Part shown: piece by piece, positions 29,309 through 48,576 of the stretch
Layout of the letters: each line of letters opens with the position of its first letter
Numbering within the stretch: position 1 is the first letter of the stretch
The notes under the pieces: model-generated
What the model saw: the letters and a program-made list of their open reading frames with translations, nothing else
Told to the model about the DNA's origin: nothing
The model's database searches: none
Source: an uncultured Gemmatimonadaceae bacterium
GTDB taxonomy: Bacteria > Gemmatimonadota > Gemmatimonadetes > Gemmatimonadales > GWC2-71-9
Direction: 5' to 3'
Length of the DNA stretch: 64,000 nt
Assembly: GCA_964449145.1 (NCBI GenBank)
Contig: CAYUYF010000001.1
Location: 64,166 to 128,165 of the forward strand
Position numbers and translations under genes: made by a program

Positions 29309-30316
29309 ATGCCCCCGGCCACCTTTTCCGTCCTTCCCCCCACCACCGAGCGGCTCGACCGATTCCTCGCCGACCAGCTGCAGCTGAGCCGCACCGTGGC
29401 GGCCCGGCTGGTGGCCGAGAAGCTGGTGCAGGTGGGCGGCAGCGTCGCCCGGGCCTCGCGAACCCTGGCGCGGGGGGAAACCGTCACGGTTGCTTTCCCC
29501 GAACACCAGCCACCGCGCACCCTCATTCCCGCCGCGATCGAGCTTGATCTCGTGCATGAGGACGAGCATCTGGCGGTGATCAACAAGCCCGCCGGACTGG
29601 TGGTGCATCCGGCGCCCGGCCACTGGGACGACACCCTCGTCAACGCCCTCGTGGCCCGAGGAACCACCCTCGCCGGTGGTGCGGAAGGGCGGCCGGGTAT
29701 CGTGCACCGGCTGGACCGGGACACCTCCGGGCTGATGGTGATTGCCAAGACCGACCTCGCCCACCGGAAGCTCGGCGCCATGCTGGCCGCCCGCCGGATT
29801 GCCCGCCGCTACGCCGCACTGGCCTGGGGTCACCTGGATGAGAGCCCAATGGTCATCGAGGCACCGCTGGCCCGCCACCCGCGGGACCGGAAGCGGATCA
29901 CGGTGCAGGAGGAGGGGCGGGCGGCCCGAACCGATGCCTATGTGGTCGCCCGCCTGGCTCAGGTCGATCTCCTCCGCCTCGAGCTCCACACCGGTCGCAC
30001 TCACCAGATCAGGGTACACCTGGCCCACATCGGACACCCGGTCCTGGGCGATCCGGTGTACGGCGGCGGAGGAAGCCGGCGGATTTCCGGCGTCCAGCGG
30101 GTGGAGGCGGAAGCGCTGGAACGGCTGACCCCGAGGCAGGCGCTGCACGCGGCATGGCTGAAGTTTCGCCACCCGGCCAGCGGGGAGCCTCTTGAATTCC
30201 AGGCCGAGTGGCCTGACGATCTGGCACCTGTCCTTGCCCGCGCGCTGGCGCCGGAGCACGCCGTTGCTCAGCCCGAACCCCTCCGCTATCTTGGCTTCTT
30301 TGAAGGACATGGCTGA
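29309..30316 (+). CDS. rluD: 23S rRNA pseudouridine synthase, RluA/RluD family
   Basis: S4-like N-terminus ('RLDRFLADQL'), catalytic 'GIVHRLDRDTSGLMVIAK' and 'HQIRVHLAHIGHPVLGDPVYG'. Start at ATG 29309. Confidence 0.9.
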   Translation: MPPATFSVLPPTTERLDRFLADQLQLSRTVAARLVAEKLVQVGGSVARASRTLARGETVTVAFPEHQPPRTLIPAAIELDLVHEDEHLAVINKPAGLVVHPAPGHWDDTLVNALVARGTTLAGGAEGRPGIVHRLDRDTSGLMVIAKTDLAHRKLGAMLAARRIARRYAALAWGHLDESPMVIEAPLARHPRDRKRITVQEEGRAARTDAYVVARLAQVDLLRLELHTGRTHQIRVHLAHIGHPVLGDPVYGGGGSRRISGVQRVEAEALERLTPRQALHAAWLKFRHPASGEPLEFQAEWPDDLAPVLARALAPEHAVAQPEPLRYLGFFEGHG

Positions 30317-30743
30317 CATCTCCTCGCTCCGGCTGGTCCTCTTTCGGCTGGGTTCGCTCCCCTGCGCGGCGGCGGCCACCGTGGTGCGTGAGGTGATTCC
30401 GGCCGGCCAACCGACCAGAATTCCCGGGGCGCTGGAGTCAGTCGCCGGCCTGCTCAACGTGCGCGGTGCGCTGCTGACGGTAGTGGATGGACGCCGGGCC
30501 CTCGGCTTGACCGGAGTACAGGCAGCACCAGAATCGGTCCTGGTCGTAGACCTCGAATCACGGGTATTCGGACTGGCGGTGGACGAGGTGCTTGATCTCG
30601 TCGAAGTCCCCGAGGAGGACCTCGCCCCAGAGGAGAGCCTCCCCGGCGTGGATCCACGGCTGGTCCAGGCGGTGGGTAGACACGGCGGGCGGGTCTTTGC
30701 CGTGCTGGACGTAGGAGCCCTGCTCGCCCCAGCCACGGGCTGA
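30309..30743 (+). CDS. cheW: CheW-like coupling protein (copy 1)
   Basis: 144 aa. Contains 'LVLFRLGSLPCAAAATVVREVIP...IPGALESVAGLLNVRGALLTVVD' and 'VFGLAVDEVLDLVEV'. The ATG overlaps the rluD stop by 8 nt. Confidence 0.85.
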   Translation: MADISSLRLVLFRLGSLPCAAAATVVREVIPAGQPTRIPGALESVAGLLNVRGALLTVVDGRRALGLTGVQAAPESVLVVDLESRVFGLAVDEVLDLVEVPEEDLAPEESLPGVDPRLVQAVGRHGGRVFAVLDVGALLAPATG

Positions 30744-30882
30744 GGTCGTTCGGGACGGTGGGAGATTCAGGCAAGTGGCCGACCGGCGAGCGCCGGGCGG
30801 CGTCAGCCGCCGGACTGATGCGCTATGCTTCCGGCCCTCGGCAATCGTTCCAATGTCGTTGCTCGACTCCACGGGAGGCCGC

Positions 30883-31245: not shown

Positions 31246-31252
31246 GGCCGGC

Positions 31253-33124
31253 ATGGACCTCTCCCGCTACGCCGCCCTCTTCGTCACGGAAAGCCGCGAG
31301 CAACTCGGCACCTGTGCGCAGGCGCTGCTCGAGTGGGAGCGGCACCCGGGGGCGGCGGAGCCGGTCGTCAGTCTGTACCGCGCCATGCACACGTTCAAGG
31401 GCATGGCGGCCGCCATGGGCTATTCCAACCTGACCGAGCTGGCCCACCGGAGTGAGTCGGTGCTGGATCTGCTTCGGAGCGACCCGGCCTCGGGCCGGGA
31501 ACTGATCGACCTCTTCTTCCGGGTGGTGGACGCCCTTGAGCAGGGCGCCTCGGTCGCGGTGGAGGGCGGGGACGCCGATCTGAAGTTCGGGCCCCTGCTG
31601 GCCGAGCTGGATGAGGCATCGGTCGCCGCCGCGCCGACGGGCAGCTGGGCCATCCCGGCGCTGGCGCCCCCGGTGGTCGCCGCAGCGGCGGAAGTCACCC
31701 AGGCCGGTCGCGAGGTCCGGGTGACCATCAACCCGGGTGCCACGATGCGCGGGGCCCGCGCGCTGCTCGCGTTGCGGAAGGCGGAGGCCCTCGGGACGGT
31801 CAGCGGCGTGCGCCCCGGGGTCACCACCTTTGATCAGGACGACTTTGACGGGCGGTTCCGCTTTGAGTTGGCGAGCCCGGCAACCGATGCCGCGGTGGCG
31901 GCGGTGATCCTCACCGCCGGCGACGTGCTCGCGGTCGAGTTCGCGGCTGCCGAGGAAGTCGGACGGGGCCAGGGCGCCTCCGAGCGCAGCCGGCAGATCC
32001 GGATCGACCTGCGGCGACTGGACGCGATGATGAACCAGGTGGGTGAACTCGTGGTCGCCCGCGGCCGGCTGGTGGAGCTGGCCGAGCAGGGCGATTCGCC
32101 CGAGCTCAAGGCCGTCGCGGCCCGGATCGGACGGGTCACCAGTGACCTGCACGGCGAGGTGACGCAGGCCCGTCTCACCCCGGTGTGGCAGGTGTTCGAC
32201 CGGTTCCCCCGGGTGGTCCGCGACCTGGCCCGGCAGCTCGGCAAGCGAGTCCGGTTCGAGGTGGAGGGAGAAGAGACCCAGCTGGACCGGGCCCTTCTGG
32301 ATGAGCTGGGCGAGCCGATGATTCACCTGCTCCGCAACGCCATCGATCACGGAATCGAGCCGCCTGCCGTGCGGAAGGCTCGGGGCAAGCCGGAGGAGGG
32401 CCTCATCCGGATCACGGCCTCCAGTGACCGCACCACGGTCCTGATCCGGATCAGCGACGACGGCGCCGGCATTGACCGGAGCCGGATCCTGGCCAAGGCG
32501 GTCCACGGTGGCCTGGCGACTCCTGAGACCGCCGACCTGACCGACGAGGACCTCCTGCGCGTCCTGGCCCAGCCGGGGTTCTCCACCGCAGAGGTGGTCA
32601 CCGACGTGTCAGGACGGGGGATGGGGATGGACGCCGTGGTCTCCCGGCTTCGGTCCATCGGCGGGGCGGTGGAGGTGACCACGGCCCCGGGACGGGGCAG
32701 CGAGTTCACTCTGCGTCTCCCCATGACGCTGGCGATCGTCCGGGTGCTGCTGGCCCGGGTCGGGGCGGAGCGGTACGCCATCCCGCTGTCGGGGATCGCG
32801 GAGACGGTCGAGTTCCGCTCCGACCATGTGGCGGCCCTCGAGGGCCGGGAGGCGTATATCCTCCGCGACCGGCTGGTGCCGACGGTGCGCCTGCGGGACC
32901 GCCTCGGGGCCACCGGGGAACGGCCGCCCGGGCGCTCCCCGGCGGTGATCGTGGAGGTCGGAGAGCGCCGGGCCGTCGTGGTGGTAGACGCGGTGCTGGG
33001 GCAGCAGGAGATCGTCGTCGAGCCGTTCGACGCGCCGAAGGGGATGTTGCAGATGTTCAGCGGAGCCACGATACTCGGGGACGGCGTTCCTGCCCTGATC
33101 GTCGACCCGGCCGCGCTGGTCTGA
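31253..33124 (+). CDS. cheA: Chemotaxis histidine kinase CheA
   Basis: 623 aa. HPt 'LYRAMHTFKGMAAAMG', dimerisation 'RIDLRRLDAMMNQVGELVV', N-box 'HLLRNAIDHGIE', G1 'DDGAGID', G2 'SGRGMGMDAV' and a C-terminal CheW-like P5 domain ('ERYAIPLSGIAETVEF'). Confidence 0.95.
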   Translation: MDLSRYAALFVTESREQLGTCAQALLEWERHPGAAEPVVSLYRAMHTFKGMAAAMGYSNLTELAHRSESVLDLLRSDPASGRELIDLFFRVVDALEQGASVAVEGGDADLKFGPLLAELDEASVAAAPTGSWAIPALAPPVVAAAAEVTQAGREVRVTINPGATMRGARALLALRKAEALGTVSGVRPGVTTFDQDDFDGRFRFELASPATDAAVAAVILTAGDVLAVEFAAAEEVGRGQGASERSRQIRIDLRRLDAMMNQVGELVVARGRLVELAEQGDSPELKAVAARIGRVTSDLHGEVTQARLTPVWQVFDRFPRVVRDLARQLGKRVRFEVEGEETQLDRALLDELGEPMIHLLRNAIDHGIEPPAVRKARGKPEEGLIRITASSDRTTVLIRISDDGAGIDRSRILAKAVHGGLATPETADLTDEDLLRVLAQPGFSTAEVVTDVSGRGMGMDAVVSRLRSIGGAVEVTTAPGRGSEFTLRLPMTLAIVRVLLARVGAERYAIPLSGIAETVEFRSDHVAALEGREAYILRDRLVPTVRLRDRLGATGERPPGRSPAVIVEVGERRAVVVVDAVLGQQEIVVEPFDAPKGMLQMFSGATILGDGVPALIVDPAALV

Positions 33125-33134
33125 GGAGGCTCGC

Positions 33135-33755
33135 ATGGACGACGTGAGGGAACTGCACGCACTGCAGCGCGACGCGCTCCGGGAGGTTGCCAATATCGGC
33201 GCCGGGCACGCCGCGACGGCCCTGTCCCAGCTCACCAACCGGCGCATCATGATCTCGGTGCCGGAGGTCAACATCGTCCGGCTCGAGGAAGTTCCGGAGA
33301 TCCTCGGCCGGCCGGACGAGGTCGTGGCCGCCGTGCTCATGCACATGATGGGCGACCTCACCGGGCGTACCCTGGTGCTGTTCCCGGAAGCCTCGGCCCG
33401 CGAGCTCTGCGATATCCTGCTGCGCCGCGCCCGCGGCACGACCACGACCTTCGAGGAGATGGAACAGTCCGGGCTGAAGGAGGTGGGGAACATCCTGTCC
33501 AGCGCTTACATGAACGCGCTGTCGGACTTCATGGGGATGATGCTGGTGCCGTCGGTCCCCAGCCTGGCCATCGACCAGAGCGGGGCGGTGCTCACGTCGA
33601 TCTACATGAACTTCGGCTACGATCGCGACTACGTGTTCTGTGTGGAGACGCGTTTCCTTTTCGAGGATCCGGGGCTCACTCTCCGGGGGCACTTCCTCCT
33701 GCTTCCCGATCTCGCCAGCCTCCGGGCCATCTTCGACGCCATCCGCCTTCCCTGA
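33135..33755 (+). CDS. cheC: CheC-family CheY-P phosphatase
   Basis: 206 aa with the duplicated ExxN active-site motif: 'LREVANIGAGHAATALSQL...P' and 'LKEVGNILSSAYMNALSDF...P'. Confidence 0.8.
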   Translation: MDDVRELHALQRDALREVANIGAGHAATALSQLTNRRIMISVPEVNIVRLEEVPEILGRPDEVVAAVLMHMMGDLTGRTLVLFPEASARELCDILLRRARGTTTTFEEMEQSGLKEVGNILSSAYMNALSDFMGMMLVPSVPSLAIDQSGAVLTSIYMNFGYDRDYVFCVETRFLFEDPGLTLRGHFLLLPDLASLRAIFDAIRLP

Positions 33756-33762: not shown

Positions 33763-36456
33763 GTGACCGGGCCAGCGTTGTCCGATCGCGACCTGAGCGT
33801 CCTCCGGTCCTTCGCCCGCCGGATCGACCCGGCCGACGCAGGCGCGCACAACAACCTCGGCGTTCTCTACTATCAAAAGGGCCTCGTCCCCGAGGCCATC
33901 GAGGAGTTTCTCCGGGCCATTGAACTGGACTCGCGCATGCAGGTGGCGCGGGAGAACCTGGAGATCGCCTATTACGCCACCGGCTATTACGACCGCCGGA
34001 TGGCCGAGCTGCGCGAACGCCTGCGCCGGGATCCGCTGGACACCGAGGCGCGCTGGGCCCTGGGCCGCACCGCGGCCGCCCTGGGGCAATGGGACGAGGC
34101 CGCCGCCGCGTTCGTGGAACTGCTGGAGCGGAACCCGGAAAACGTCCCCGCGCTGCTGCAGCTGGGTCTCGCCGAGCGGGGACGGGGCCAGTTCGAGCAG
34201 GCTACCATCGTGTTCGAGCGGGCCCGGAGCCTCGACCCCACCAGCCCGATCACTCTCTTCCATCACGGCGAAGTCCTCTACAATCGCGGGCTGTCCGACC
34301 AGGCGCGGCAGGCCCTCGAGGAGGCGGTGGGGCGCAATCCCGACTACGCCGATGCGTTCTACCTGCTGGCCTTCGTCTACGGTGATCTTGGGTTGCACGA
34401 GGAAGCCCGCGTGGCCACCGCCCGGGCCACTTCGCTCAACCCGACTCTCGGTCGGGCCCAGAGCAACCTCTCCCTGACCCGCTACGAGGGGCTCTCCGAC
34501 AATGGGCCGGGGAGGGGTGACCAGGCCCGGCGGCCCGCGCCGAGGCCGCAGGTCGTCGAAGGGTCTGGGCTGGCCCATTTCAACCTCGGGCTCGCCTTCC
34601 GCCAGAAGGGGTACTACGTCGAGGCACTGCGGGAATACCGGCTGGCGCTCGAGGCGGGGGAGGACGGCCGGCTGGTGCAGCAGGCCATGGCCGAGGTGTA
34701 CCTGCTCCGGCGCGACCTCGCGGCGGCCCTCGAGATCTACGACGCCCTGCTGGCGGAGGACAGCGCGTCACCCAAGCTCTGGAATGAACGTGGGGTATGC
34801 CTGCACCAGTCGGGACGGCGGGACGACGCGGCGGCGTCGTATCAGCAGGCGGTGCTCGTGGATCCGGCGTACGCCCTCGCCTGGAACAACCTGGGGGTGC
34901 TGCGCACGCAGGAGGCCGAAGGCGACGGGGCGCTGGAGGCGTTCCAGCAGGCGCTCAAGTTCCGGCCCGGACTGGCGGCCGCGCGCCTCAACCTGGCCCT
35001 CGCTCTGTTCAACCGCCGCCGCCTGCAACTGGCCCTCGAGGCCTACCGGCAGGTGCTGTCGGAGCAGGCCGGTAACGCCACCGCCTGGAATGGGGTCGGG
35101 CTGGTCCTGGTCGAACTCAAGCGGTTTGAGGACGCCCGGCACGCCTTCTCCCGCGCCGTCGAGGCCGACGCCGCCAACGCCTCCGCCCACTACAACCTCA
35201 GCTTCACGCTCAGCCACCTCGGCGACTTTGATGGCGCGTTGCGCGCCACCAAGCGGGCCCTGGAACTGGAGCCGTTCTACGTGGCGCAGAAGTACGCCTT
35301 GACCCTGGACCTGCAGTACGAGCATCCGGAGATCGCCGTCGTCCCGGAGATCTCGGCGGATATCACCGCCGATCATGTCGGGGAGGAGTTCCTGTTCGAT
35401 CCACGGCTGCTGGATCGGGTCTTCGATGAGCTGGAGCCGGTCGAGCGGCATCCCGGCACGCCGGTCGAGGACGCTCTGGCGCTGGCGGCAGACTACATCG
35501 GGAAGGGCTTTCTCGAACTCGCGGCTGTTGAGGTGGAACGGGCCCTGGCCCGCGGCGCCGCCCCCGGCCGAGCCACCACGCTCCTCGGTCAGATCTTTTT
35601 CCGCCGGGGTCTCCACGGCGAGGCGCTCGAGCGCTTTCAGCAGGCCCGGGCCCTCGATCCGGCCGATCCCCAGTCGGTGCTCGGGGAGGTGCAGGCGCTG
35701 CTGGCGCTGGGGCGGGCCGCGGAGGCGTCCGGGAGTGCGGAGCTCCTGCTGCGGCTGGCGCCGGACGACGTCGAATCACTGGTGGCCGCGGCGCGAACTC
35801 GCCTGGCCTGCGGAGATACCTTCGACGCGCGCCAGGTGCTTCGTGAGGCCCGAATGCTTGCCCCGGGACGCTCGGACCTGCTGCACCTCGAAGCGGGCAT
35901 CGCAGAAGAGCACGGCGACCTGTCCGGCGCCGTGGAGGCGATCCACGGCGCGCTGGAGCTGGACCCCGGGATTCCGCAGGTCTGGCGCGACCTGGGACGG
36001 CTGGAGGAGCGGCGCGAGAACTGGGTGGCCTCACGGCTGGCGTACCAGCGGGCCCTCGATCTCCTCCCAACCTATATGGAGGCAGCCCTGCCCCTGGCGG
36101 ACCTGCTGCGGCGCACCGAATCGGCCCGGGCCGCGGTGGACTTCCTGGTGGATGTCCTCATGGCGGAGCCGTGGGACCTGGACGCGCTGCTGCTGCTGGC
36201 CCGCGCGCTGCTGGACGATGGCCGCGCCGACGAGGCCCTCCAGGCGGTGGAGCTGGTGCTCAAGTTCGATCCGCAGAACGAAGCCGCGCTCTTCTACCGC
36301 GGCGTGGCCCTGGCGCGTAACCGGCGCTACGGGGAAGCGGTCCGCACCTGGGAGCGGGTCGTGCAGGTCGATGCGGCGGGCCCCTACGCCCAGGCGGCCA
36401 GGGTGCATGCCCGATCCGCCCGCGACTTGGCGCACATCTTTGCCGGGGCGGCCTGA
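33763..36456 (+). CDS. Large tetratricopeptide-repeat (TPR) protein (about 897 aa)
   Basis: Many TPR units, e.g. 'AHNNLGVLYYQKGLVPEAIEEFLRAIELD', 'AFYLLAFVYGDLGLHEEARVATARATSLNP', 'AWNNLGVLRTQEAEGDGALEAFQQALKFRP' and 'AHYNLSFTLSHLGDFDGALRATKRALELEP'. GTG 33763 lies 7 nt after the cheC stop. Confidence 0.8.
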   Translation: MTGPALSDRDLSVLRSFARRIDPADAGAHNNLGVLYYQKGLVPEAIEEFLRAIELDSRMQVARENLEIAYYATGYYDRRMAELRERLRRDPLDTEARWALGRTAAALGQWDEAAAAFVELLERNPENVPALLQLGLAERGRGQFEQATIVFERARSLDPTSPITLFHHGEVLYNRGLSDQARQALEEAVGRNPDYADAFYLLAFVYGDLGLHEEARVATARATSLNPTLGRAQSNLSLTRYEGLSDNGPGRGDQARRPAPRPQVVEGSGLAHFNLGLAFRQKGYYVEALREYRLALEAGEDGRLVQQAMAEVYLLRRDLAAALEIYDALLAEDSASPKLWNERGVCLHQSGRRDDAAASYQQAVLVDPAYALAWNNLGVLRTQEAEGDGALEAFQQALKFRPGLAAARLNLALALFNRRRLQLALEAYRQVLSEQAGNATAWNGVGLVLVELKRFEDARHAFSRAVEADAANASAHYNLSFTLSHLGDFDGALRATKRALELEPFYVAQKYALTLDLQYEHPEIAVVPEISADITADHVGEEFLFDPRLLDRVFDELEPVERHPGTPVEDALALAADYIGKGFLELAAVEVERALARGAAPGRATTLLGQIFFRRGLHGEALERFQQARALDPADPQSVLGEVQALLALGRAAEASGSAELLLRLAPDDVESLVAAARTRLACGDTFDARQVLREARMLAPGRSDLLHLEAGIAEEHGDLSGAVEAIHGALELDPGIPQVWRDLGRLEERRENWVASRLAYQRALDLLPTYMEAALPLADLLRRTESARAAVDFLVDVLMAEPWDLDALLLLARALLDDGRADEALQAVELVLKFDPQNEAALFYRGVALARNRRYGEAVRTWERVVQVDAAGPYAQAARVHARSARDLAHIFAGAA

Positions 36457-36459: not shown

Positions 36460-37608
36460 ATGGCAATCGAAGGCCCGCTCAAGGAACTCAGCATTCACGA
36501 TGTCTTCCAGCTGCTCGATCTGAGCCGGAAGACCGGCACCCTGCGGGTGGCCTCGGACCTCCGGCAGAACGCCGGGACGGTCTATTTCGAGGACGGCATG
36601 GTGACCGGTGCCGAAATCCGCAGCAACCCGTTCCCCCTGGGGCGCCTGCTGATGCGTGCCGGGAGGATATCAGAGGCCGCCCTCACCGAGGCCCGGGAGG
36701 TGCAGTCGAAGGGTGATCGACGGCGGCTGGGGCAGATTCTGCTCGAGCAGGGACTGGTGAGCGCCCGCGACCTGGCCCGCGTGGTCCGGCAGCAGATCGA
36801 GGAGGTCGTCTTCGAACTCGTCGGCTGGTCGGAGGGATATTTCGCCTTTGAAGAGGGCAAGCGAGGCGATTGGCCCATGGAAGCGGAGCTGCGGGTGGCC
36901 ACCGGCGCCTTGCTCATGGAGGCGGCGCGCCGCACCGACGAGTGGTCCCGCATCGAGAAGAAGATTACCCATCTTGGGCTGGTCCCGAAGCTGTCCCCCG
37001 TGCACGACCAAGGCACCCCGCTCGACCTGCTCCCGGGTGAGTGGGAGCTCCTGGCTGTCATTGACGGCGAGCGCTCGGTGCGGGAGCTGGCCTCGGTGCT
37101 GGGCCGCCCCGAGTTCGAGATCGCCAGAGTCCTCTTCGGGTTGGCCACCGCTGGCATTATCCTGCTTGAGGATCCGGCCCGCCGCGCCATGGAAGCGCTC
37201 GGCGGCGCCGATCTCCCGATTCTGCTGGGCGAGGTGGATCAGCTGCTCGGTGCCGGCGACCCCGACGCCGCCGCCCAGGCAGCCCAACAGGCCGTGACCG
37301 GCCACCCGGAGGAGCCCCTGGCACACCTGGCGTATGGTCGGAGTCTCCTCGCAGCCGCCCGTCCGGCGGAGGCCTCCGAAGCGCTGTGGCAAGCGGTGCA
37401 TCTCGACGCCGAGTCCGCGCCAGCCCAGCGGCTGTTCGGGTTGAGCCTGGCGGCAACGGGCCGGTTCCGGGAGGCGGCCCAGGTGTGGGAACAGTGGAGA
37501 CGACTGGCAGCCAAGGCGCCCGAGGAAGAGGCCCAGGCCGCCGCGGTGGAGCGGGTGCGGCAGGCTGCGCTGGCGCTGGACCTCGCGCTCAGGGGATCAC
37601 GTGACTGA
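36460..37608 (+). CDS. PATAN/DUF4388 domain protein with helical insertion and C-terminal TPR-like region
   Basis: 'GPLKELSIHDVFQLLDLSRKTGTLRVAS...GTVYFEDGMVTGAE' is the DUF4388 signature. It is followed by paired 'LGRLLMRAGRISEAAL'/'LGQILLEQGLVSARDL' helices (GspE-N-like), then 'GYFAFEEG'. The C-terminus has TPR-like helices. Confidence 0.8.
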   Translation: MAIEGPLKELSIHDVFQLLDLSRKTGTLRVASDLRQNAGTVYFEDGMVTGAEIRSNPFPLGRLLMRAGRISEAALTEAREVQSKGDRRRLGQILLEQGLVSARDLARVVRQQIEEVVFELVGWSEGYFAFEEGKRGDWPMEAELRVATGALLMEAARRTDEWSRIEKKITHLGLVPKLSPVHDQGTPLDLLPGEWELLAVIDGERSVRELASVLGRPEFEIARVLFGLATAGIILLEDPARRAMEALGGADLPILLGEVDQLLGAGDPDAAAQAAQQAVTGHPEEPLAHLAYGRSLLAAARPAEASEALWQAVHLDAESAPAQRLFGLSLAATGRFREAAQVWEQWRRLAAKAPEEEAQAAAVERVRQAALALDLALRGSRD

Positions 37609-39242: not shown

Positions 39243-39848
39243 ATGTCCCTCGTCAACTTCACCACCCGCGAGATCACCTGCAAGATCGTGTACTACGGCC
39301 CGGGGCGTTCCGGGAAGACCACGAACCTGCAGTACATCTACGGCCGCGTGCCCGAGGCCCGCCGGGGCCGGATGGTCAGTCTCGCGACCCAGACGGACCG
39401 CACCCTGTTCTTCGATTTCCTGCCCATCGATCTGGGGGTCATCAGCGGATTCACCACCCGCTTCCAGCTGTACACCGTGCCGGGGCAGGTCTACTACAAC
39501 GCGACCCGCAAGCTGGTCCTGCAGGGCGCCGATGGCATCGTGTTCGTGGGGGACAGCCAGGCCCGCCGGCTGGAGGACAACATCGAGAGTCTGCAGAATC
39601 TGCAGTCCAACCTGCTGGCGCAGGGGGTCGATGTCCGCAACTTCCCCGTCGTCCTGCAGTACAACAAGCAGGATCTGCCGGCCGACCTCATCCTCCCGCC
39701 CGCCGACCTCGACGACGCGCTCAACTTCCGGGGCTACCGCAGCTTCCCCGCCGATGCGGTGCGCGGGGCGGGGGTGTTCGAGACCCTGAAGGGCATCTCC
39801 GAACTGGTGCTCAAGCGGCTGGCCGCCGGCGGCGCCGGAGCGGCCTGA
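39243..39848 (+). CDS. mglA: MglA, Ras-like small GTPase (mutual gliding-motility protein A family)
   Basis: 201 aa, close to M. xanthus MglA along its whole length. Contains '[25 protein letters not shown]', '[11 protein letters not shown]' (intrinsic Arg), '[12 protein letters not shown]' (the MglA-specific TxxGQ switch II in place of DxxGQ) and 'LQYNKQDLP' (NKxD). Confidence 0.93.
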
Positions 39849-41881: not shown

Positions 41882-43500
41882 TGGCGATCAAGGGCAGTCT
41901 CAAGGAAGCCAGTCTGCCGGACGTGCTGCAGCTGCTGGCCCTGGGCAAGAAGACCGGGTGTCTGGCCGTCGCCGACCGCCAGAACTTCGGCTACATCTTC
42001 TTCGACGAGGGCAGGATCTGCTATGCCTCCATCGTCAACCGGCGGGATCGCATCGGCGACCTGCTGCGCAAGAACCAGCTGGTCACCACCGAGCAGCTCG
42101 ATCACGCCATCCGGCTGCAGGAGCTGCACCGGGAGCGCCGCCTGGGGGACATCCTCATCGAGACCGGCGCCCTGGAGCGGGGCGAGCTGGAGCGACTGCT
42201 GGCCCTGCAGATCGAGGAGGCGGTCTTCCACCTGTTCACCTGGATCCAGGGCACCTTCAACTTCGAAGCCGGGGTCAAGCCGGAAGGCCAGGTCTTCACT
42301 GTTTCCATCAATCCCGAGTCGCTGCTGCTGGAGGGGGCCCGCCGGGTGGACGAGTGGAGCCAGATCGAGAAGAAGATTCCCAGCTTCGACCTGATCTTCG
42401 CGGTGGATCCCACCCATCCGCCGGGGGACAACGTGGGCCTGTCACCGGCGCAGGAACGGATCATTCCCCTGCTGGACGGCAGCCGGGACGTGCAGCAGGT
42501 CATCGACGAGTGCTCGCTCATCGAGTTCGACGCGGCCCAGGCCCTGTTCGGGCTCATCACTGCCGGGTACGTGCGCCGGGTCGGGACTTCGGCCCGCCCG
42601 GAGGCGCCCCGCGCCAACGACGTCCGCATCCAGGAGCACCAGAATCTCGGCATCGCGTTCTACAAGACGGGGATGCTGGACGAGGCGCAGCGCGAGTTCC
42701 GCCGGGTGGCGGACCTCCGCCCGACCGAACCGCAGGCGTCCTTCTTTCTCGGGCTGATCGCCCTCAAGCAGGCCCGGTGGCAGGAAGCGGTGGACACGCT
42801 CCAGGAGGCCATCGAGCGCGGCGCCCGGCGGGCCTCCAGTTACCACAACCTCGCCTTCGCCTTCGAGCAGCTGGGCCGGCTGGCGGACGCGGAGACCGCG
42901 TACGCGGAGGCGGCATCGCGAGCCCGCGACGACGCGCGGGTGATGATCGGGTGGGGGGTGACCGCGCTGAAGCGCAACGATCCCGAAGTGGCGCTGGGCC
43001 GCCTGCAGCGGGCGGCGGAACTGCTGGGGGATCGCCCGCGGCCGGCCACCTGGTTCTGGGCCATGGCGCTCGCGGTCGCCTGCCAGGGAGACCTGGTGGA
43101 AGCGCTGTCGGTGTCCGAACAGGGCGTGGAGGCGCACAGCGGCAACGCCGTCCTCAAGAACAACCACGCCGTGCTCACCGAGCTGGCGGGTGATCTCGCC
43201 AGTGCGGAGCTGCTCCTGCGCACGGCACTCGCGCAGGACCCCACCCTCGCCCCGGTCTCGAAGAACCTGGGGGACCTGTTGTACCGGGCGGGCCGCTTCG
43301 ACGATGCCTTCGAGGCCTATGAGCGGGCCGCCAAGCTCAGCCCGGCCCTCGGTGACGACCTCTATTTCAAGATGGGCAACATCGCCTACAAGCGCCGAGA
43401 CCGGGAACGGGCCCGCTCCTGCTGGCGCCGGGTCACCGAGCTCAACCCCAGTCACCAGCTCGCCCGCGCCAACCTCGACACCCTGGACGCCACCGCGTGA
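41881..43500 (+). CDS. PATAN/DUF4388 domain protein with helical insertion and C-terminal TPR domain
   Basis: 'GSLKEASLPDVLQLLALGKKTGCLAVAD...GYIFFDEGRICYAS', then 'IGDLLRKNQLVTTEQL'/'LGDILIETGALERGEL', then 'GTFNFEAG'. The C-terminal TPRs include 'HQNLGIAFYKTGMLDEAQREFRRVADLRP' and 'SKNLGDLLYRAGRFDDAFEAYERAAKLSP'. Confidence 0.8.
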   Translation: MAIKGSLKEASLPDVLQLLALGKKTGCLAVADRQNFGYIFFDEGRICYASIVNRRDRIGDLLRKNQLVTTEQLDHAIRLQELHRERRLGDILIETGALERGELERLLALQIEEAVFHLFTWIQGTFNFEAGVKPEGQVFTVSINPESLLLEGARRVDEWSQIEKKIPSFDLIFAVDPTHPPGDNVGLSPAQERIIPLLDGSRDVQQVIDECSLIEFDAAQALFGLITAGYVRRVGTSARPEAPRANDVRIQEHQNLGIAFYKTGMLDEAQREFRRVADLRPTEPQASFFLGLIALKQARWQEAVDTLQEAIERGARRASSYHNLAFAFEQLGRLADAETAYAEAASRARDDARVMIGWGVTALKRNDPEVALGRLQRAAELLGDRPRPATWFWAMALAVACQGDLVEALSVSEQGVEAHSGNAVLKNNHAVLTELAGDLASAELLLRTALAQDPTLAPVSKNLGDLLYRAGRFDDAFEAYERAAKLSPALGDDLYFKMGNIAYKRRDRERARSCWRRVTELNPSHQLARANLDTLDATA

Positions 43501-44327
43501 CCGCGACCGACGAGGCCGGGTTCGCCGCCCTGGCGGAGCGGATCGCGGGTCGCGCCGGCCTCGATATCGGTGCCTACAAGGACCGCTGCCTCAGGCGCCG
43601 GATCGCGGTGCGAATGCGGGCCTGTGGGGTGCACCGCTACGGGGATTATGTCGCGCTGCTGGATGACCATCCGGAGGAGTTCGACCGGCTGCTGGATGCG
43701 CTCACCATCAACGTCACCAAGTTCTTCCGCAACCGCGAAACCTGGGAGTGGCTGGGGGCGGAGCTGCTCCCGGCCATGCTGCAGGCCCGGACGGGGCAGC
43801 TGCGGGTGTGGAGCGCCGGCTGCGCGTCCGGGGAAGAGCCGTACACCATCGCGATCCTCGTGGCGGAGGTGCTCCGGCGCATGGGCCAGCCGGAGTGGAT
43901 GGCCCGGGTCCGCATCGAGGCCACCGACATCGACCGCCGCTCCATGGACCGCGCCAGGGCCGCGCGTTATCCGCGCCGGGCGTTCAGTGAGGCCGACCCG
44001 GACGTGCCGCTGCGCTACTGCACCATCGCCGGGGTGGGGGAAGAGGAGCTCGAGATCCGGGCGGAGATCCGGCGCATGGTGGAGATCCGGCCGTTTGACC
44101 TCACCCGCGACCATCCCCCGGTCGGGCGGTACGACCTGGTCTGCTGCCGCAATGTGGTGATTTATTTTGACAGGGAGACACAGGAACGACTCATGAACCT
44201 CTTCGCCGATGCCCTGATCACCGAGGGCATCCTCGTGCTGGGGAAGGTCGAGACCATCCTGGGACTGGCGCGCAATCGCTACGACCTGCTGGAACCGCGT
44301 GAGCGGATCTACCGGAAGATCGCGTGA
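43497..44327 (+). CDS. cheR: Chemotaxis protein methyltransferase CheR
   Basis: 276 aa. Contains 'LTINVTKFFRN', 'LRVWSAGCASGEEPYTIAILV' (SAM site) and 'DLVCCRNVVIYFD'. The GTG start overlaps the upstream stop (GTGA). There is no TPR extension. Confidence 0.93.
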   Translation: MTATDEAGFAALAERIAGRAGLDIGAYKDRCLRRRIAVRMRACGVHRYGDYVALLDDHPEEFDRLLDALTINVTKFFRNRETWEWLGAELLPAMLQARTGQLRVWSAGCASGEEPYTIAILVAEVLRRMGQPEWMARVRIEATDIDRRSMDRARAARYPRRAFSEADPDVPLRYCTIAGVGEEELEIRAEIRRMVEIRPFDLTRDHPPVGRYDLVCCRNVVIYFDRETQERLMNLFADALITEGILVLGKVETILGLARNRYDLLEPRERIYRKIA

Positions 44328-44812
44328 CCACGACGGAACTGCTGGTGCGCGTCGCGGATCTCCAGGCGGGGCGGGGCGACGCCGTCCTGGTCACGCTGGG
44401 CCTGGGCAGCTGCGTCGCCATCATGCTGCACGATGCGGCGGGACAGCTCGGAGGCCTGGCGCACATCCTGCTCCCCTCCCGTTCGCTCAGCCGCGGTGGC
44501 GACAACCCGGGACGCTTTCCCCAGACGGCCATCCCGGCCCTGCTGGAGCGCATGGGCGAGCTGGGCGCTGACCGTCGGCGGATCACCGCGCGGCTCGTGG
44601 GCGGGGCCGCGATGTTCGCCAGCCTGGCCCCCGCCGGCTCCATCCAGATGGGCGACCGTAACCTCATCGCCGTGCGCGAGGTGCTCACCGGCCACGCGAT
44701 TCCAATCGTCGGTGAACTGGTCGGGGGGGCGCAGGGCCGTTCGGTCTGGTTTGAGGTGGCAACCGGCAGGATCCGGGTGCGTTCGGTGGGGCAGAGTGAG
44801 CAGCTCCTCTGA
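44324..44812 (+). CDS. cheD: Chemoreceptor glutamine deamidase CheD
   Basis: 162 aa. Contains 'VTLGLGSCVAIMLHD', 'GGLAHILLP', 'ARLVGGAAMF', 'MGDRNL' and 'GGAQGRSVWFEVATGRIRV'. Confidence 0.9.
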   Translation: MTTTELLVRVADLQAGRGDAVLVTLGLGSCVAIMLHDAAGQLGGLAHILLPSRSLSRGGDNPGRFPQTAIPALLERMGELGADRRRITARLVGGAAMFASLAPAGSIQMGDRNLIAVREVLTGHAIPIVGELVGGAQGRSVWFEVATGRIRVRSVGQSEQLL

Positions 44813-45869
44813 GCTGCCCGGCGTGCTCGTCGTGGACGACAGCGCGTTCTTCCGGCGCCTCGTCAGCGAGGTCGTCGCGGGGTCGGGCGAGTTCCGCGTC
44901 GTGGGCAGCGCCTCGGACGGGCTGGAGGCGCTGGAAAAGGTCCACGCGCTGCAGCCCGACCTGGTGACCATGGATCTGCAGATGCCGGGGCTCGGGGGGC
45001 TCGAGGCGATCGGATACATCATGTCCGAGGCGCCCCGGCCCATCGTCGTGGTGAGTGCGCATGCCGGCCACGGGTCGGTGAGCTCGATCCGCGCGCTCGA
45101 ACTCGGCGCGGTCGAGCTCGTCCCCAAGGAGGACAGCCGGGGCGGCCGGCTCTCCTCACTGCGTATTGCCCCCCGCCTGCTGGACGCGCTGCGGGCGGCG
45201 GTGGCCGCCGATATCCGGCGCGTGCCGGTGCTCGCCCGGCCCCGCGCCAGCGTCGGGTTCGCCGGGGCCCGGCCGGCCGGCGCTGCCCGGCGCATCCTGG
45301 CCATCGCGGCCTCGACCGGCGGACCGAGGGCCCTCGCCGAACTGGTTCCCGCCCTCCCCCTAGGGCTGGAGACGGCGGTGCTCATCATCCAGCACATGCC
45401 CCCCGGGTTCACCCGGAGCCTGGCCGAGCGGCTCAACGGCCTCTCCGCCCTTACAGTGGTGGAAGCGGAACAGGGCATGCAGGTGAGAGCGGACACCGCC
45501 TATTTGGCTCCCGGGGATTATCATATGAAGTTGAGCGAGGTGGAGGGAGCGCTCCAGCTGTCGCTGGACCAGGCGCCACCGGTCTGGGGGGTACGGCCCG
45601 CCGCCGACCCGCTGTTCCATTCGGTGGCCCACGGGTTCGGTCCGGCGACCGTCGGCGTGGTACTGACGGGGCTCGGCCGCGACGGCGCCGCCGGTCTCCG
45701 GGCCATCCACGATGCAGGCGGCGTCGGCATCGCCCAGGACCGGAGCACCGCCACGATCTACGGGATGCCAGGTGCCGCCCTCGAGGCCGGCGGCGCGGAC
45801 CTGGTGCTGCCGCTGGGCGCCATTGCCGACCGGGTGGGTGCATTACTCCGCGAGGTGCCTCGGCGATGA
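44796..45869 (+). CDS. cheB: Protein-glutamate methylesterase/glutaminase CheB (REC + CheB_methylest)
   Basis: REC 'VLVVDDSAFFRR' and 'DLVTMDLQMPGLGG'. Esterase 'AIAASTGGPRAL', 'IQHMPPGFT', 'GVVLTGLGRDGAAG' and 'TATIYGMPGAA'. The start is GTG 44796 (17-nt overlap with cheD) or an alternative GTG at 44823. Confidence 0.93.
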   Translation: MSSSSELPGVLVVDDSAFFRRLVSEVVAGSGEFRVVGSASDGLEALEKVHALQPDLVTMDLQMPGLGGLEAIGYIMSEAPRPIVVVSAHAGHGSVSSIRALELGAVELVPKEDSRGGRLSSLRIAPRLLDALRAAVAADIRRVPVLARPRASVGFAGARPAGAARRILAIAASTGGPRALAELVPALPLGLETAVLIIQHMPPGFTRSLAERLNGLSALTVVEAEQGMQVRADTAYLAPGDYHMKLSEVEGALQLSLDQAPPVWGVRPAADPLFHSVAHGFGPATVGVVLTGLGRDGAAGLRAIHDAGGVGIAQDRSTATIYGMPGAALEAGGADLVLPLGAIADRVGALLREVPRR

Positions 45870-46300
45870 CCGCGGCCCAACTCCTGTACGTCCGGGCAGG
45901 TGGTCACCGCTGCGGCTTACCGCTGGCGCAGGTCCTGGCGGTCATCGAAGCGGGCCCGGTGCAGGCCGTCCCGGGGCGGCTGGCGGCGCTGCGGGGAATC
46001 ATCCAGGTGCGGGGCCGGATGGTCTCGCTGTTCAACCTCGGCGCGCTGCTCGGCGGGGAGATGCCGCCGGGGCCGCCGAATGGCATGCTCGTGCTCACCC
46101 GGATCGGGGGCCGCGAGGTGGCCCTGGAGGTGGACGAGATCGACGCCGCCCCGGCGGGCGCGGTGGTCCCGCCGCCTGACTACGCTGGCCTGCAGGTGTG
46201 GGCCAGCGGCGCCGTGCGGCAGACGGACGGCTGGGTGCCGATTCTCAATCTCGAAGGCCTCGCCGAGCGCTGGCGGCTGGCCGAGGAGGGGGCAAGGTGA
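45866..46300 (+). CDS. cheW: CheW-like coupling protein (copy 2, divergent)
   Basis: 144 aa: 'LLYVRAGGHRCGLPLAQVLAVIE...VPGRLAALRGIIQVRGRMVSLFNLGALLG' and 'EVALEVDEIDAAP'. ATGA overlap with cheB. Confidence 0.8.
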   Translation: MTAAQLLYVRAGGHRCGLPLAQVLAVIEAGPVQAVPGRLAALRGIIQVRGRMVSLFNLGALLGGEMPPGPPNGMLVLTRIGGREVALEVDEIDAAPAGAVVPPPDYAGLQVWASGAVRQTDGWVPILNLEGLAERWRLAEEGAR

Positions 46301-46755
46301 GTGAGGACGAACTGCAGTTCGTGGTCTTCCGGCTTGGGCCGCAGGAATTTGCGCTGAGCATCGTGCAGGTGGAGCGGATCCTGCGCTACGAGGCGCCCGC
46401 GGCGGTGCCGCAGGCCCCGGAATTCCTCGAGGGGGTCATGCCGTATGGCGGCGGCGTGGTGCCACTCGTGGACCTGCGCAAGCGCCTGTCGCTGGAGGCG
46501 CCGCTCAAGGAAGAGACCCGGGTGATGGTCGTCCATCTGGACGATCAGCACGTCGGGGTCGTCGTAGACCAGGTCAAGGAGGTGCTCCGCGTGGATACCC
46601 GCACCATCGCCTCCCCGCCGCCCATGGTGCGGGGCCTGGCCGCCCGGTACATCAGCGGCATCATCACCCGGCCCGGCCGGACCATCGTGGTGCTGAACGC
46701 GGGCCGGCTGCTCTCGACCGAGGAACGGCTGGCCCTGTCGGAGGCGTTGCCGTGA
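46297..46755 (+). CDS. cheW: CheW-like coupling protein (copy 3)
   Basis: The GTG 46297 start overlaps the upstream TGA. Contains 'LQFVVFRLGPQEFALSIVQVERILRY..AVPQAPEFLEGVMPYGGGVVPLVDLRKRL', 'HVGVVVDQVKEVLRV' and 'TIVVLNAGRLLS'. Confidence 0.85.
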   Translation: MSEDELQFVVFRLGPQEFALSIVQVERILRYEAPAAVPQAPEFLEGVMPYGGGVVPLVDLRKRLSLEAPLKEETRVMVVHLDDQHVGVVVDQVKEVLRVDTRTIASPPPMVRGLAARYISGIITRPGRTIVVLNAGRLLSTEERLALSEALP

Positions 46756-47627
46756 GCGACTCTCCGGTGACCGAGCCCCTGGTGACGGCGTACCGGGAGC
46801 AGTACCGCGACATTGCCGAGCGCCTCGAGCGGGCGACGACCGGGGCCGAGCGCGAGGTGGTCAAGCGCGAGATCATCGCGTACTTCAAACGCGTCGACTC
46901 GGCCCTGGTGGAGCTGACCCAGGTCAAGGAGGAGATCCGCCAGCTGGTGGATCGCTACAAGCAGAGTGCCGCCAGCACCGAGGCCGCGCCGGCGCCGCAG
47001 TTCACCGGCGCCCGCCCCGTCGTCCAGCAGGACCATCTGGGCGCCTCGACCTACATCGAGAAAGGCTGGAGCCTGATCTCCCTCGGGGATTATTCGGGCG
47101 CCATCCAGTCGCTGAGCAAGGCGCTGACGCTGGCGCCATCGGAAATCCAGGCCCAGTCCCTGCTGGGGTGGGCCCAGATGCTTCACGAGGAATATGACGA
47201 CGCGCTCGGCACCTTCTCCAAGGTGCTGATGAAGGAGCCCGCCAACTCGCTGGCGCGCATCAACGTCGGCTACATCTGCCTCAAGAAGCGGATCTTCGGG
47301 GAGGCCATCGAGCACCTCTCGAAGGCCATCCGCCTCGACAACGACCGCAAGGCCACCCTCTACGCCCACTACTACCTGGGGCTGGTGTATCTCGAGCGGG
47401 AGATGTTCGAAGACGCGGTGACATTTCTCCAGAAGACCCTGCAGCTCGGGCCCAATCTGATCGAGGCCTACTACGAGCTGGGCCGCGCCAACTGGTTCGC
47501 GGGAGAGAAGGAGGCCGCCGCCGCCGCCTGGAGCGACGGCTTCAAGGCCAACAAGTTCAATCCCTGGGGCAAGCGCTGCAAGGAAATGCTGGACCTCACC
47601 GCTGGCGGTGGCGAGCCGCCCCGCTAG
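46752..47627 (+). CDS. Coiled-coil + TPR protein
   Basis: 291 aa. The N-terminal ~90 aa are helical and charged ('EREVVKREIIAYFKRVDSALVELTQVKEEIRQLVDRYKQ'). TPRs follow ('YIEKGWSLISLGDYSGAIQSLSKALTLAP', 'HYYLGLVYLEREMFEDAVTFLQKTLQLGP'). GTGA overlap upstream. Confidence 0.75.
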   Translation: MSDSPVTEPLVTAYREQYRDIAERLERATTGAEREVVKREIIAYFKRVDSALVELTQVKEEIRQLVDRYKQSAASTEAAPAPQFTGARPVVQQDHLGASTYIEKGWSLISLGDYSGAIQSLSKALTLAPSEIQAQSLLGWAQMLHEEYDDALGTFSKVLMKEPANSLARINVGYICLKKRIFGEAIEHLSKAIRLDNDRKATLYAHYYLGLVYLEREMFEDAVTFLQKTLQLGPNLIEAYYELGRANWFAGEKEAAAAAWSDGFKANKFNPWGKRCKEMLDLTAGGGEPPR

Positions 47628-48576
47628 CCGGCTCGACACGCTCGCCTCCGCCACGCTGTGGCCTGTGCTGCTTCCTCTCCTCGCCCTGCTCCTCGCCGAT
47701 ACACTCGCCATCCAGGTGGGCCTGGTGTCGGTCGTGGCGCCCCCGGAGCTGCAGGCGCTGGCGGTCTCGCTGGCGGAGCAGGCGGAGCGCCCGGTCGAGT
47801 GGCCGGGACTGGGGCAGCGGGTTCCACCACCCTTCACCCTGATCATGGCTTCCGATTCCGCCGCCCTGGCCCGGCTCACCCGGGGCCGGGCCCCGGGCTG
47901 GGGCGCGGCGGTGGCCATTCCCAGCGCCCGGCGGATCTACCTGCGGGCCGACCTGCCGAACCTGGCGCACACCCTCCGCCACGAGGTGGCGCATCTGGTC
48001 CTGCGCGACGCCGTGCGGGCCCGGACACCCCTGTGGTTCGACGAGGGCTACGCCGCGTGGGCCTCCGGTGAACTGGAACGCTTCGCGACGCTCGAGTTGA
48101 ACCTGGCTGTGGCCGCGGGCCGGCTGCCCACCTTGCCGCAACTGGACGCCATGCTCCGCAGCTCTGCCGCCACGGCGGACCTGGCGTACGCCCTTGCGGC
48201 GAGCGCGGTGCTGGAACTGTCACGGCGCCAGCCGGCAGGAGCGCTCGAGCGGGTGATGGCCGGGCTGGTGCCCGGCGCGACGTTTTATGGCGCCCTGGAG
48301 CAGGCGACTGGACTGAACGAGAGTGCCTTCGAACGCGCCTGGCACCAGGGGTTGCGGCGCCGCTACAGCCTGCTCACCTGGCTGGCCGCCGGGGGGCTCT
48401 GGCTCCTGGTGGCCGCCGGGGTGGTGGCCGTCGCTTTGAACCGCAAACGCCGGGAGGCGCCGCGCCGGGCCGCGCTGGACTGGGGCTGGCCGGGACCGGA
48501 AGAATCCATCACCCTGGACGGTGCCGGTCCCGCCCCCCCGGGCGGCCCCGTTGACCCCGGGGCACCGAGGCAGTAA
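47608..48576 (+). CDS. Membrane-anchored MA-clan (Peptidase_MA_2-like) putative zinc metallopeptidase
   Basis: HExxH in 'LRHEVAHLVLRD', followed 19 aa later by 'WFDEGYAAWASGE' (gluzincin-type third ligand). It has an N-terminal hydrophobic segment and a C-terminal TM, 'LLTWLAAGGLWLLVAAGVVAVAL'. The ATG overlaps the upstream TPR gene by 20 nt. Confidence 0.6.
   Translation: MASRPASRLDTLASATLWPVLLPLLALLLADTLAIQVGLVSVVAPPELQALAVSLAEQAERPVEWPGLGQRVPPPFTLIMASDSAALARLTRGRAPGWGAAVAIPSARRIYLRADLPNLAHTLRHEVAHLVLRDAVRARTPLWFDEGYAAWASGELERFATLELNLAVAAGRLPTLPQLDAMLRSSAATADLAYALAASAVLELSRRQPAGALERVMAGLVPGATFYGALEQATGLNESAFERAWHQGLRRRYSLLTWLAAGGLWLLVAAGVVAVALNRKRREAPRRAALDWGWPGPEESITLDGAGPAPPGGPVDPGAPRQ

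Follow-up and report, generated by a model that had tools for sequence, protein, structure and literature searches.

How a chemosensory phosphorelay is connected to the polarity switch formed by MglA, a Ras-like GTPase, remains a matter of debate, even for Myxococcus, whose genome carries the components at scattered sites. The locus described here poses that question for genes that lie side by side. In a window of 64,000 nucleotides (nt), by which we mean the whole stretch of DNA analysed (assembly GCA_964449145.1, contig CAYUYF010000001.1, positions 64,166-128,165), che genes bracket mglB and mglA within an array of 19 genes on the + strand (30309-48576; coordinates below are those of the window unless a related locus is named). 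Do the Che phosphorelay and the MglA switch act together in one integrated pathway? Our answer is a tentative yes, because the interleaved gene order is coupled by overlaps and deeply conserved, because the Frz chemosensory system is linked to MglA and MglB, and because of the known partners of the types of component that the array encodes.

Gene order, junctions and conservation of the array

Pfam scans of the encoded proteins bear out the gene list and order proposed in an initial annotation of this DNA, with MglA and MglB, which Pfam barely detects, confirmed by a separate structure-sequence comparison. The window has a G+C content of ~69% and nearly all of its genes lie on the + strand. 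From cheY to the peptidase gene that ends the array, the distances between consecutive genes are 7, 10, 7, 3, -8, -4, -1, 3, -1, -1, -4, -4, -17, -4, -4, -4 and -20 nt. Twelve of these junctions overlap and the largest gap is 10 nt, the limit already given in the initial annotation, which had also placed the TGATG and GTGA/ATGA start/stop overlaps correctly. The first gene, cheW1, starts 8 nt before the end of the upstream rluD-like gene, an overlap found in 41/41 loci, and is separated from cheY by 139 nt, or by 109 nt if cheY starts at 30853 (the start positions of cheY, cheB, rluD and the peptidase gene are estimates). The tight packing is not due to chance: in 41-75 orthologous junctions of other species the median gaps come out the same, the estimated junction lengths being kept with medians of -8, -4, -1, 3 and 4 nt. 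Overlap lengths are conserved in 95-100% of loci at 16 junctions, and in 79-100% at the end formed by cheW3, the gene for a 291-amino-acid (aa) TPR protein and the peptidase gene. Promoter and terminator consensus scans gave nothing above chance inside the array or at its ends, and a pattern search of 45 loci found neither a sigma-28 nor a sigma-54 promoter upstream of cheY. The array genes are probably co-transcribed, and the earlier proposal of a single operon is strongly backed by the conserved order and overlap lengths in 80 species-level Gemmatimonadota genomes and in deeper relatives.

Relatives of the tandem ATPase encoded in the array occur in 252 genomes, scanned at one genome per species, and the best 80 loci, all from Gemmatimonadota metagenome-assembled genomes, were compared. 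In all loci of sufficient length, tblastn with all window proteins recovered a single order, which runs rluD, cheW1, cheY, cheA, cheC, the 897-aa TPR gene, PATAN1, TPR-Roadblock, Roadblock, mglB and mglA in its first half, and the ATPase gene, PATAN2, cheR, cheD, cheB, cheW2, cheW3, the 291-aa TPR gene, the peptidase gene and a gene for a secreted TPR protein in its second. The initial annotation had named beforehand the conservation of che-mglBA linkage in relatives as one of the findings on which it would stand or fall, and the linkage is conserved in every spanning Gemmatimonadota locus of the best 80. CheY, MglA, CheC and the 291-aa TPR protein are the best conserved members. The interleaved order and the overlaps are kept while the identity of the ATPase runs from 93% to 37% and that of CheA falls to ~43%, and relatives with an ATPase ~40% identical still have the same array between the same flanks. 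This conservation of order and junction overlaps down to ~40% ATPase identity indicates that the che-mglBA linkage is old and selected within the Gemmatimonadota.

The protein clusters are large, with ~2,500 database members for CheY and >1,000 for one MglA cluster; no cultured carrier was found among the named cluster members, all of which are metagenome-assembled Gemmatimonadales or Gemmatimonadota. Two apparent exceptions, whose sequences equal or nearly equal those of Gemmatimonadales, are probably binning errors: a locus binned as Solirubrobacterales (L076) equals a Gemmatimonadales locus (L077) in length, match coordinates and gene content, and an MglA labelled Streptomyces sp. (P0485) falls in a Gemmatimonadales 90% cluster.

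MglA, MglB and the Roadblock proteins

Judged by its sequence, the product of 39243-39848 is a bona fide MglA, a polarity GTPase of group 1. phmmer analysis against the PDB matched it over the full length (residues 1-198) to M. xanthus MglA (5ymx; E 1.6e-72, 57% identity) and to T. thermophilus MglA (3t12; E 4.9e-68). The P-loop, the intrinsic Arg of TDRT (equivalent to Arg53), the TVPGQ motif with the catalytic Gln and the NKQD motif are all present, and Thr replaces Asp in the DxxG motif, as group 1 membership asks. Orthologs are 79-100% identical, and most are labelled "signal recognition particle receptor subunit beta", "GTPase SAR1 family protein" or "GTPase domain-containing protein" in the databases, labels that are a routine and misleading mis-annotation.

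The mglB gene (38775-39239) stops 3 nt before mglA, and the pair is kept in all loci spanning it. Its product has a C-terminal extension and matches MglB structures in the PDB (6h5b, E 1.1e-7; 1j3w, E 5e-5) and, at 92% probability in hhalign, a Roadblock alignment; against the NCBIfam MglB equivalog it scores 31 bits (2e-7), below the cut-off of 200 bits. We regard it as a divergent member of the MglB/Roadblock family and a putative GTPase-activating protein (GAP) of MglA. Two more genes of this kind precede it. A stand-alone Roadblock/LC7 protein (38428-38775; Pfam Robl_LC7 5.8e-11), in an MglC-like position, matches an MglB alignment (hhalign 92% probability, E 5e-7), and a TPR-Roadblock fusion (37601-38431; Pfam TPR and a weak Robl_LC7 match, 8e-4) has a C-terminal domain that matches a Roadblock alignment (91% probability, E 1e-6). 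Profile-profile comparison thus places three consecutive Roadblock paralogs directly 5' of mglA.

Chemosensory proteins

The che genes lie on both sides of this block. Upstream are cheW1, encoding a CheW coupling protein (30309-30743; Pfam CheW 1.3e-26, orthologs 44-88% identical), cheY, encoding a Thermotoga-type single-domain response regulator (30883, or 30853, to 31245; Response_reg 1.5e-31), cheA (31253-33124), with the Pfam architecture Hpt-P2-dimerisation-HATPase-CheW and no receiver, and cheC, for a phosphatase of phosphorylated CheY (CheY~P; 33135-33755, CheC 6e-22). Downstream are the genes for the receptor methyltransferase CheR (43497-44327; CheR and CheR_N), the receptor deamidase and CheC partner CheD (44324-44812; CheD 2.5e-26), the receiver-methylesterase CheB (44796, or 44823, to 45869; CheB_methylest 4.8e-62 and Response_reg), a divergent CheW (cheW2, 45866-46300; CheW 5.6e-18, orthologs 33-84% identical), which is the least conserved gene of the array, and a third CheW (cheW3, 46297-46755; CheW 1.3e-33). 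Between cheC and cheR we count six genes besides mglBA that are not che genes, one fewer than in the initial annotation. Every phosphorylation or catalytic residue checked in the Che proteins is present. The set had been described as a complete kinase and adaptation set; a tblastn search with the conserved receptor signalling core found no methyl-accepting chemotaxis protein signalling domain in the window or in 90 related loci. In this respect the set is incomplete, and CheR, CheB and CheD imply receptors encoded elsewhere.

CheY is the most conserved gene product of the array (orthologs 85-100% identical; the 120-aa form is the usual one in databases). It shares 64% identity with T. maritima CheY (PDB 4iga/1tmy; E 2e-51), including 29/35 residues of the alpha4-beta5-alpha5 surface that binds FliM and CheC. 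T. maritima CheA is the closest solved relative of CheA (7.5e-91), for which the top NCBIfam match is a haloarchaeal CheA, and CheC matches T. maritima CheC (1xkr, 1.3e-31), with both active-site E/N motifs readable in the sequence. By architecture and closest solved relatives, the combination of a five-domain CheA with CheC and CheD places the set with Thermotoga/Bacillus (MiST F1-like) systems. It has neither an in-cluster FrzCD-like receptor, nor a CheA-receiver fusion, nor a dual-receiver FrzZ-like output, the only stand-alone receiver in the array being the 120-aa CheY; nor does it have the PATAN-receiver fusion and in-operon receptor of the cyanobacterial Tax/Pix systems. The Che set appears, then, to be of the Thermotoga/Bacillus/archaeal type, and neither Frz-like nor of the cyanobacterial pilus type. 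Since the Che proteins are of that type, CheY may also, or instead, address a flagellar motor, and the one dedicated machine of the initial annotation is a conjecture; that it would be dedicated to MglA does not follow from the data.

PATAN-TPR proteins as candidate c-di-GMP sensors

Two PATAN (DUF4388) proteins flank the mgl block, PATAN1 at 36460-37608 (Pfam DUF4388 6.5e-33) and PATAN2 at 41881-43500 (7.5e-37). Both end in TPR repeats and neither has a Response_reg match. In each, the 122-position model of PF14332 is spread over ~160 residues, a sign of an insert, and this helical insert holds two tandem MshEN-type motifs for binding cyclic di-GMP (c-di-GMP) in PATAN1 (residues 59-112; 36634-36795) and a MshEN-like motif pair in PATAN2 (residues 57-110; 42049-42210). 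The 24-residue motif RLGxx(L/V/I)(L/V/I)xxG(L/V/I)(L/V/I)xxxxLxxxLxxQ is matched exactly at PATAN1 residues 89-112 and nearly in the other three copies. Against NCBIfam NF053729 (cut-off 38 bits), PATAN1 scores 42.9 bits and PATAN2 37.2, just below the cut-off, and the motif core is kept in PATAN orthologs. The motifs suggest a c-di-GMP-sensing role for the inserts of the PATAN domains.

The TPR scaffold and the tandem DnaA-type ATPase

The gene for the tandem ATPase (39848-41881; Pfam Bac_DnaA twice, 1.7e-95) overlaps the end of mglA by a single nucleotide. Its product has two AAA+ modules of the DnaA domain III type (residues 1-240 and 400-632) with a helical domain in the middle. Module 1 shares 42% identity with DnaA domain III of B. 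subtilis (PDB 8bv3; 3e-55) and keeps the DnaA arginines together with a B-motif-like FRHRY; the match to Hda (5x06) is 1e-8, module 2 being the more Hda-like. Walker A, Walker B and the arginines are invariant in both modules. An AlphaFold2 model (pLDDT 81.5) comprises the two AAA+ modules, the helical middle domain and two disordered stretches. Foldseek aligned it with 8bv3 at a TM-score of 0.92, normalised to the target; all its hits were to DnaA, Hda or double-ring AAA+ proteins of a generic kind, with no informative match for the helical middle domain. Databases often label the protein "chromosomal replication initiator protein DnaA", and the label is misleading. DnaA domains I, II and IV are absent (Pfam gives no Bac_DnaA_C or DnaA_N match), no Hda-type QL[SP]LPL-like clamp-binding motif is present at the N-terminus, and identification as a replication initiator or Hda was rejected for want of domains I and IV and of the clamp motif. 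Residues 633-677 consist of a disordered stretch rich in Arg and Ser and, after it, an almost invariant tail, SREKxVWDWPDxADRLIEE, which looks like a short docking motif, possibly for a TPR domain of the operon.

All tandem ATPase homologs found in the homolog search come from Gemmatimonadota, to which an exhaustive profile search adds a lineage labelled Cloacimonetes. That search recovered full-length tandem ATPases down to 31% identity (~30 cluster representatives), after which the next matches are true DnaA. The family seems, on these searches, to be restricted to the Gemmatimonadota and one small neighbouring lineage.

The array also encodes an 897-aa protein that consists throughout of TPR repeats (33763-36456; Pfam TPR families). 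Its ortholog is colinear and adjoins the ATPase gene even where che and mgl genes are missing (L083, E 3e-89), and this ~900-aa TPR protein and the tandem ATPase are the deepest conserved pair. The array closes with the 291-aa coiled-coil/TPR protein (46752-47627; Pfam TPR families, orthologs 65-93% identical) and a membrane-anchored MA-clan metallopeptidase with a HEVAH motif (47608-48576; Peptidase_MA_2 4.5e-10).

Variant loci

A deep Gemmatimonadota variant with other flanks (L089) has the order TPR, PATAN, TPR-Roadblock, Roadblock, MglB, MglA, ATPase, PATAN, CheR, CheB, CheW and peptidase, the peptidase staying at the array end even there. In a Gemmatimonadetes bacterium (GCA_003697105.1; L083/L084, 3765-12094) the TPR scaffold and the ATPase stand alone, with neither che nor mgl genes. 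Upstream of that pair, at a distance of a few genes, are two bactofilin genes, and downstream are genes for secreted proteins of unassigned function; a 200-aa gene after the ATPase in L083 was considered as mglA and rejected, having neither MglA similarity nor a P-loop.

In the lineage of Candidatus Cloacimonetes 4572_55 (L081/L082 and L088; G+C ~49%) the order is cheW, cheY, cheA, AAA_22, long CheW, cheC, TPR, short PATAN and ATPase, and its CheY is 67% identical to that of the window; mglA, mglB, Roadblock genes, cheR, cheB and cheD were not found within 10 kb. It may therefore be the pair of TPR scaffold and ATPase, and not MglA, with which the Che genes have their oldest partnership, and the mgl/Roadblock block is a gain or a loss on a TPR-ATPase background.

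Where the window has cheW2, some relatives encode an AAA_22 ATPase together with a long CheW protein. In L085 (15934-17384), L090 (7074-8902), L081 (4035-5923) and L088 (3743-5493) a 265-272-aa AAA_22/AAA_16 ATPase is directly followed by a 218-344-aa CheW-domain protein, a pair reminiscent of ParC/ParP that was evidently lost in the lineage of the window, which has the short cheW2 there.

A proposed pathway and its alternatives

Gene identities, catalytic motifs, operon-like packing and the deep conservation of the linkage are established. From them, and from the partners of related proteins elsewhere, we infer the protein contacts of the pathway, which way its signal flows and which organelle it acts on, as follows. 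Chemoreceptors encoded elsewhere would control CheA through the three CheW proteins; CheY~P would be reset by CheC, and adaptation would be carried out by CheR, CheB and CheD. CheY~P would then dock on the receiver-less PATAN-TPR or TPR-Roadblock adaptors, and docking would alter how active the MglB/Roadblock GAP complex is or where it sits, which would in turn set the GTP state of MglA and the place where it accumulates. The effectors of MglA-GTP would be the large TPR scaffold, for which SgmX and Bd2492 serve as analogues, and the tandem AAA+ protein, driven by ATP. Together the two would position a polar organelle or switch it on, type IV pili being the most plausible one. c-di-GMP would be a second input, through the PATAN inserts.

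Several of these steps have published counterparts. The Frz system controls the MglA/MglB switch in M. xanthus (PMC3441718, PMC4546325). For type IV pili, MglA has an effector in the TPR protein SgmX (PMC7519303), and the MglA of Bdellovibrio is partnered by a TPR protein (PMC3983030). In cyanobacteria, Che-like systems have PATAN-receiver regulators that bind PilB1, the ATPase of the pilus (bioRxiv 10.1101/2021.06.11.447907), and cyanobacterial PATAN proteins set pilus polarity (bioRxiv 10.1101/2021.06.11.447907; PMC5812497). mglA and mglB are often encoded near PATAN genes (bioRxiv 10.1101/2021.06.11.447907), occasional PATAN neighbours having been recorded earlier (PMC4316618).

Several observations weigh against an integrated pathway. 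No flagellar, type IV pilus, gliding or receptor gene was found in the 64 kb, nor did any locus have one within +/-10 kb. The likeness of CheY to that of T. maritima fits a flagellar output at least as well. Neither mglA nor mglB was found within 10 kb in the Cloacimonetes 4572_55 lineage, which suggests that the Che system does not strictly need MglA. In L087 (GCA_029262155.1; 826-1047 and 15925) the array is kept without cheW2 and cheW3 and the gene call at the position of cheW1 is only 73 aa, and CheA would there have only its own CheW-like domain for coupling. Finally, we know of no DnaA-like ATPase in any MglA system, and the role given to the ATPase here is a guess.

The main rival, possible but in our judgement rather unlikely, is that the Che proteins form a standard Thermotoga/Bacillus-type flagellar pathway with CheY acting on FliM, and that the products of the embedded mgl, Roadblock, PATAN, TPR and ATPase genes receive no signal from it and build, position or partition the chemoreceptor array, the flagellum or both at the pole, in analogy to ParC/ParP, PpfA and FlhF/FlhG, which are encoded in che or flagellar operons elsewhere. 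CheY, CheA, CheC and CheD are closest to T. maritima proteins, the cultured Gemmatimonas aurantiaca is flagellated, the deepest unit of TPR scaffold and ATPase joins che genes even without mgl, and the extra AAA_22 ATPase of some relatives lies beside a long CheW protein as in ParC/ParP. Such placement is harder to reconcile with the absence of a flagellar gene nearby and of a sigma-28-like promoter upstream of cheY, and the ATPase is DnaA-type, not ParA/MinD-type or signal recognition particle-type. In all studied cases known to us, MglA and PATAN proteins go with pili or gliding and not with flagella or arrays. The motor addressed by archaeal CheY of this type is non-flagellar, and similarity of CheY therefore does not fix the target.

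The integrated pathway can also be recast around its most deeply conserved pair. The tandem ATPase and the 900-aa TPR protein would then be the core, hitherto unrecognised, of a nucleotide-driven polarity machine, to which the Che phosphorelay, MglA/MglB and c-di-GMP are inputs; we consider this speculative and unlikely. At its boldest, this idea would have the DnaA-like module tie the identity of the pole to the chromosome or to the start of replication, in a phylum noted for division by budding.

The genes around the array suggest a third explanation. Upstream are ftsH and a housekeeping block (24125-30316) of ileS, a DksA-type zinc-finger gene, lspA and the rluD-like pseudouridine synthase gene (29309-30316, + strand; Pfam PseudoU_synth_2 and S4), whose start is uncertain (open reading frame from 29108); a long N-terminal extension of IleRS was rejected as an artefact of open reading frame calling, codon bias putting the true start near 25180. 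Downstream, the peptidase gene is followed by a small conserved open reading frame for a two-helix membrane peptide (48590-48780), tRNA-Val(TAC) on the + strand (48850-48924; Rfam tRNA 72.6 bits, also called by ARAGORN), which marks the array boundary, the gene of a secreted 572-aa TPR protein, tRNA-Asp(GTC) (50855-50929) and a division/cell-wall cluster of rsmH, likely ftsL, ftsI, murE, murF, mraY, ftsW and murG (flank 48993-62000), with no mraZ evident in the window. Rfam found three tRNAs and no other RNA family in the window. The gap after the peptidase gene is ~420 nt, a conserved length (interquartile range 401-428 nt), and tRNA-Val is found there in relatives too. Both flanks are kept in most Gemmatimonadales loci.

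This setting, between ileS-lspA-rluD and the division/cell-wall cluster, would fit a control of the cell cycle or of polar growth, with polarity serving division or budding instead of motility, the ATPase talking to the replication initiator or the chromosome, and MglA marking the pole. Gemmatimonas can divide by budding, and module 1 of the ATPase has its 42% identity to DnaA domain III, with the DnaA arginines and FRHRY. We nevertheless hold this to be improbable: adjacency to housekeeping genes is weak evidence, and L089 has other flanks; a tRNA gene and the secreted TPR protein separate the array from rsmH; the ATPase has neither the DNA-binding domain IV nor an Hda-type clamp motif; and CheR, CheB and CheD imply the fast adaptation that is typical of taxis. 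That the che genes and the mgl/TPR/PATAN genes are functionally unrelated and stand together through operon history alone is very improbable indeed, for although variants exist with che but no mgl, and with TPR scaffold and ATPase but no che, the interleaved che-polarity-che order and its exact overlaps are kept, which is not expected without selection for joint expression.

Relation to known systems

Chemosensory control of an MglA switch, as the integrated pathway would have it, is already known in kind; what is new is che and mglBA in one operon with a tandem DnaA-type ATPase. The nearest functional counterpart is Frz with MglA/MglB/RomR(-MglC) in M. xanthus, which likewise combines CheA, CheW, CheR and CheB with MglA (57% identical, with the same catalytic residues), a Roadblock-type MglB and extra Roadblock paralogs (cf. 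MglC). There, however, frz, mglBA, romR and mglC are separate, whereas here there is one operon; the initial annotation had given frz and mglBA as separate loci in Myxococcus, in agreement with Wuichet & Sogaard-Andersen 2014 (PMC4316618). The array also differs in having no in-cluster FrzCD-like receptor, FrzE-like CheA-receiver fusion, FrzZ, FrzX or RomR, and in having Thermotoga-type Che proteins with CheC and CheD, PATAN-TPR proteins and a DnaA-like ATPase.

The cyanobacterial Tax/Pix/Hmp pilus operons also encode Che and PATAN proteins together, but PATAN is fused to a receiver there and to TPR here, the array has no in-cluster receptor or hybrid CheA, and its MglA, MglB, Roadblock and AAA+ ATPase are absent from those operons. 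The polar hub of Bdellovibrio (MglA, the TPR protein Bd2492, RomR and the c-di-GMP receptor CdgA) is similar in joining MglA, a TPR partner and a c-di-GMP input at the pole (PMC3983030), and different in its lack of Che and MglB, its scattered loci and its other type of c-di-GMP sensor. Flagellar chemotaxis of the Thermotoga/Bacillus (MiST class F1-like) type shares the CheA architecture, CheC, CheD, CheR, CheB, CheW and a CheY that is 64% identical; here, by contrast, no receptor or flagellar gene is nearby, eight non-Che genes interrupt the set and there are three CheW proteins. ParC/ParP of Vibrio and PpfA of Rhodobacter resemble the array in having a nucleotide-hydrolysing protein inside a che operon, and some relatives of the array pair an ATPase with a CheW-domain protein. 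Those ATPases are of the ParA/MinD type; in the array of the window the only ATPases are CheA and the tandem-duplicated AAA+ protein of the DnaA/Hda clade. With DnaA and Hda themselves the likeness is that both halves of the protein are DnaA-type AAA+ domain III with intact Walker A/B and arginines, but the array ATPase is tandem, with a helical insert and disordered linkers, and is encoded in a signalling operon. It is an unprecedented component for an MglA/chemosensory system.

Full-text searches of the literature turned up neither an account of a che-mglBA operon nor one of che clusters with a DnaA-like ATPase, and MglA in Gemmatimonadota only as a table entry. The 2014 survey of prokaryotic small GTPases credits Gemmatimonas aurantiaca with two MglA genes of group 1, in the contexts MglB>MglA and PATAN>MglA>-PATAN, and its Table S2 gives a PATAN-MglA-x-PATAN locus, GAU_1409, for this species. 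It did not score che genes, and it records that mglA lies away from its signalling partners in Myxococcus and Bdellovibrio (PMC4316618).

A link between Che and MglA that is known only functionally, in Myxococcus, is hard-wired here in one operon of ~19 genes. The array gives a parts list in a single operon, kept across a very abundant soil phylum, and nominates candidates for the connectors between phosphorelay and switch, namely the PATAN-TPR proteins with their c-di-GMP motifs, the TPR-Roadblock fusion, the extra Roadblock protein, the TPR scaffold and the double ATPase. With the last of these, a close paralog of the ATPase domain of the replication initiator has been recruited into a signalling operon.

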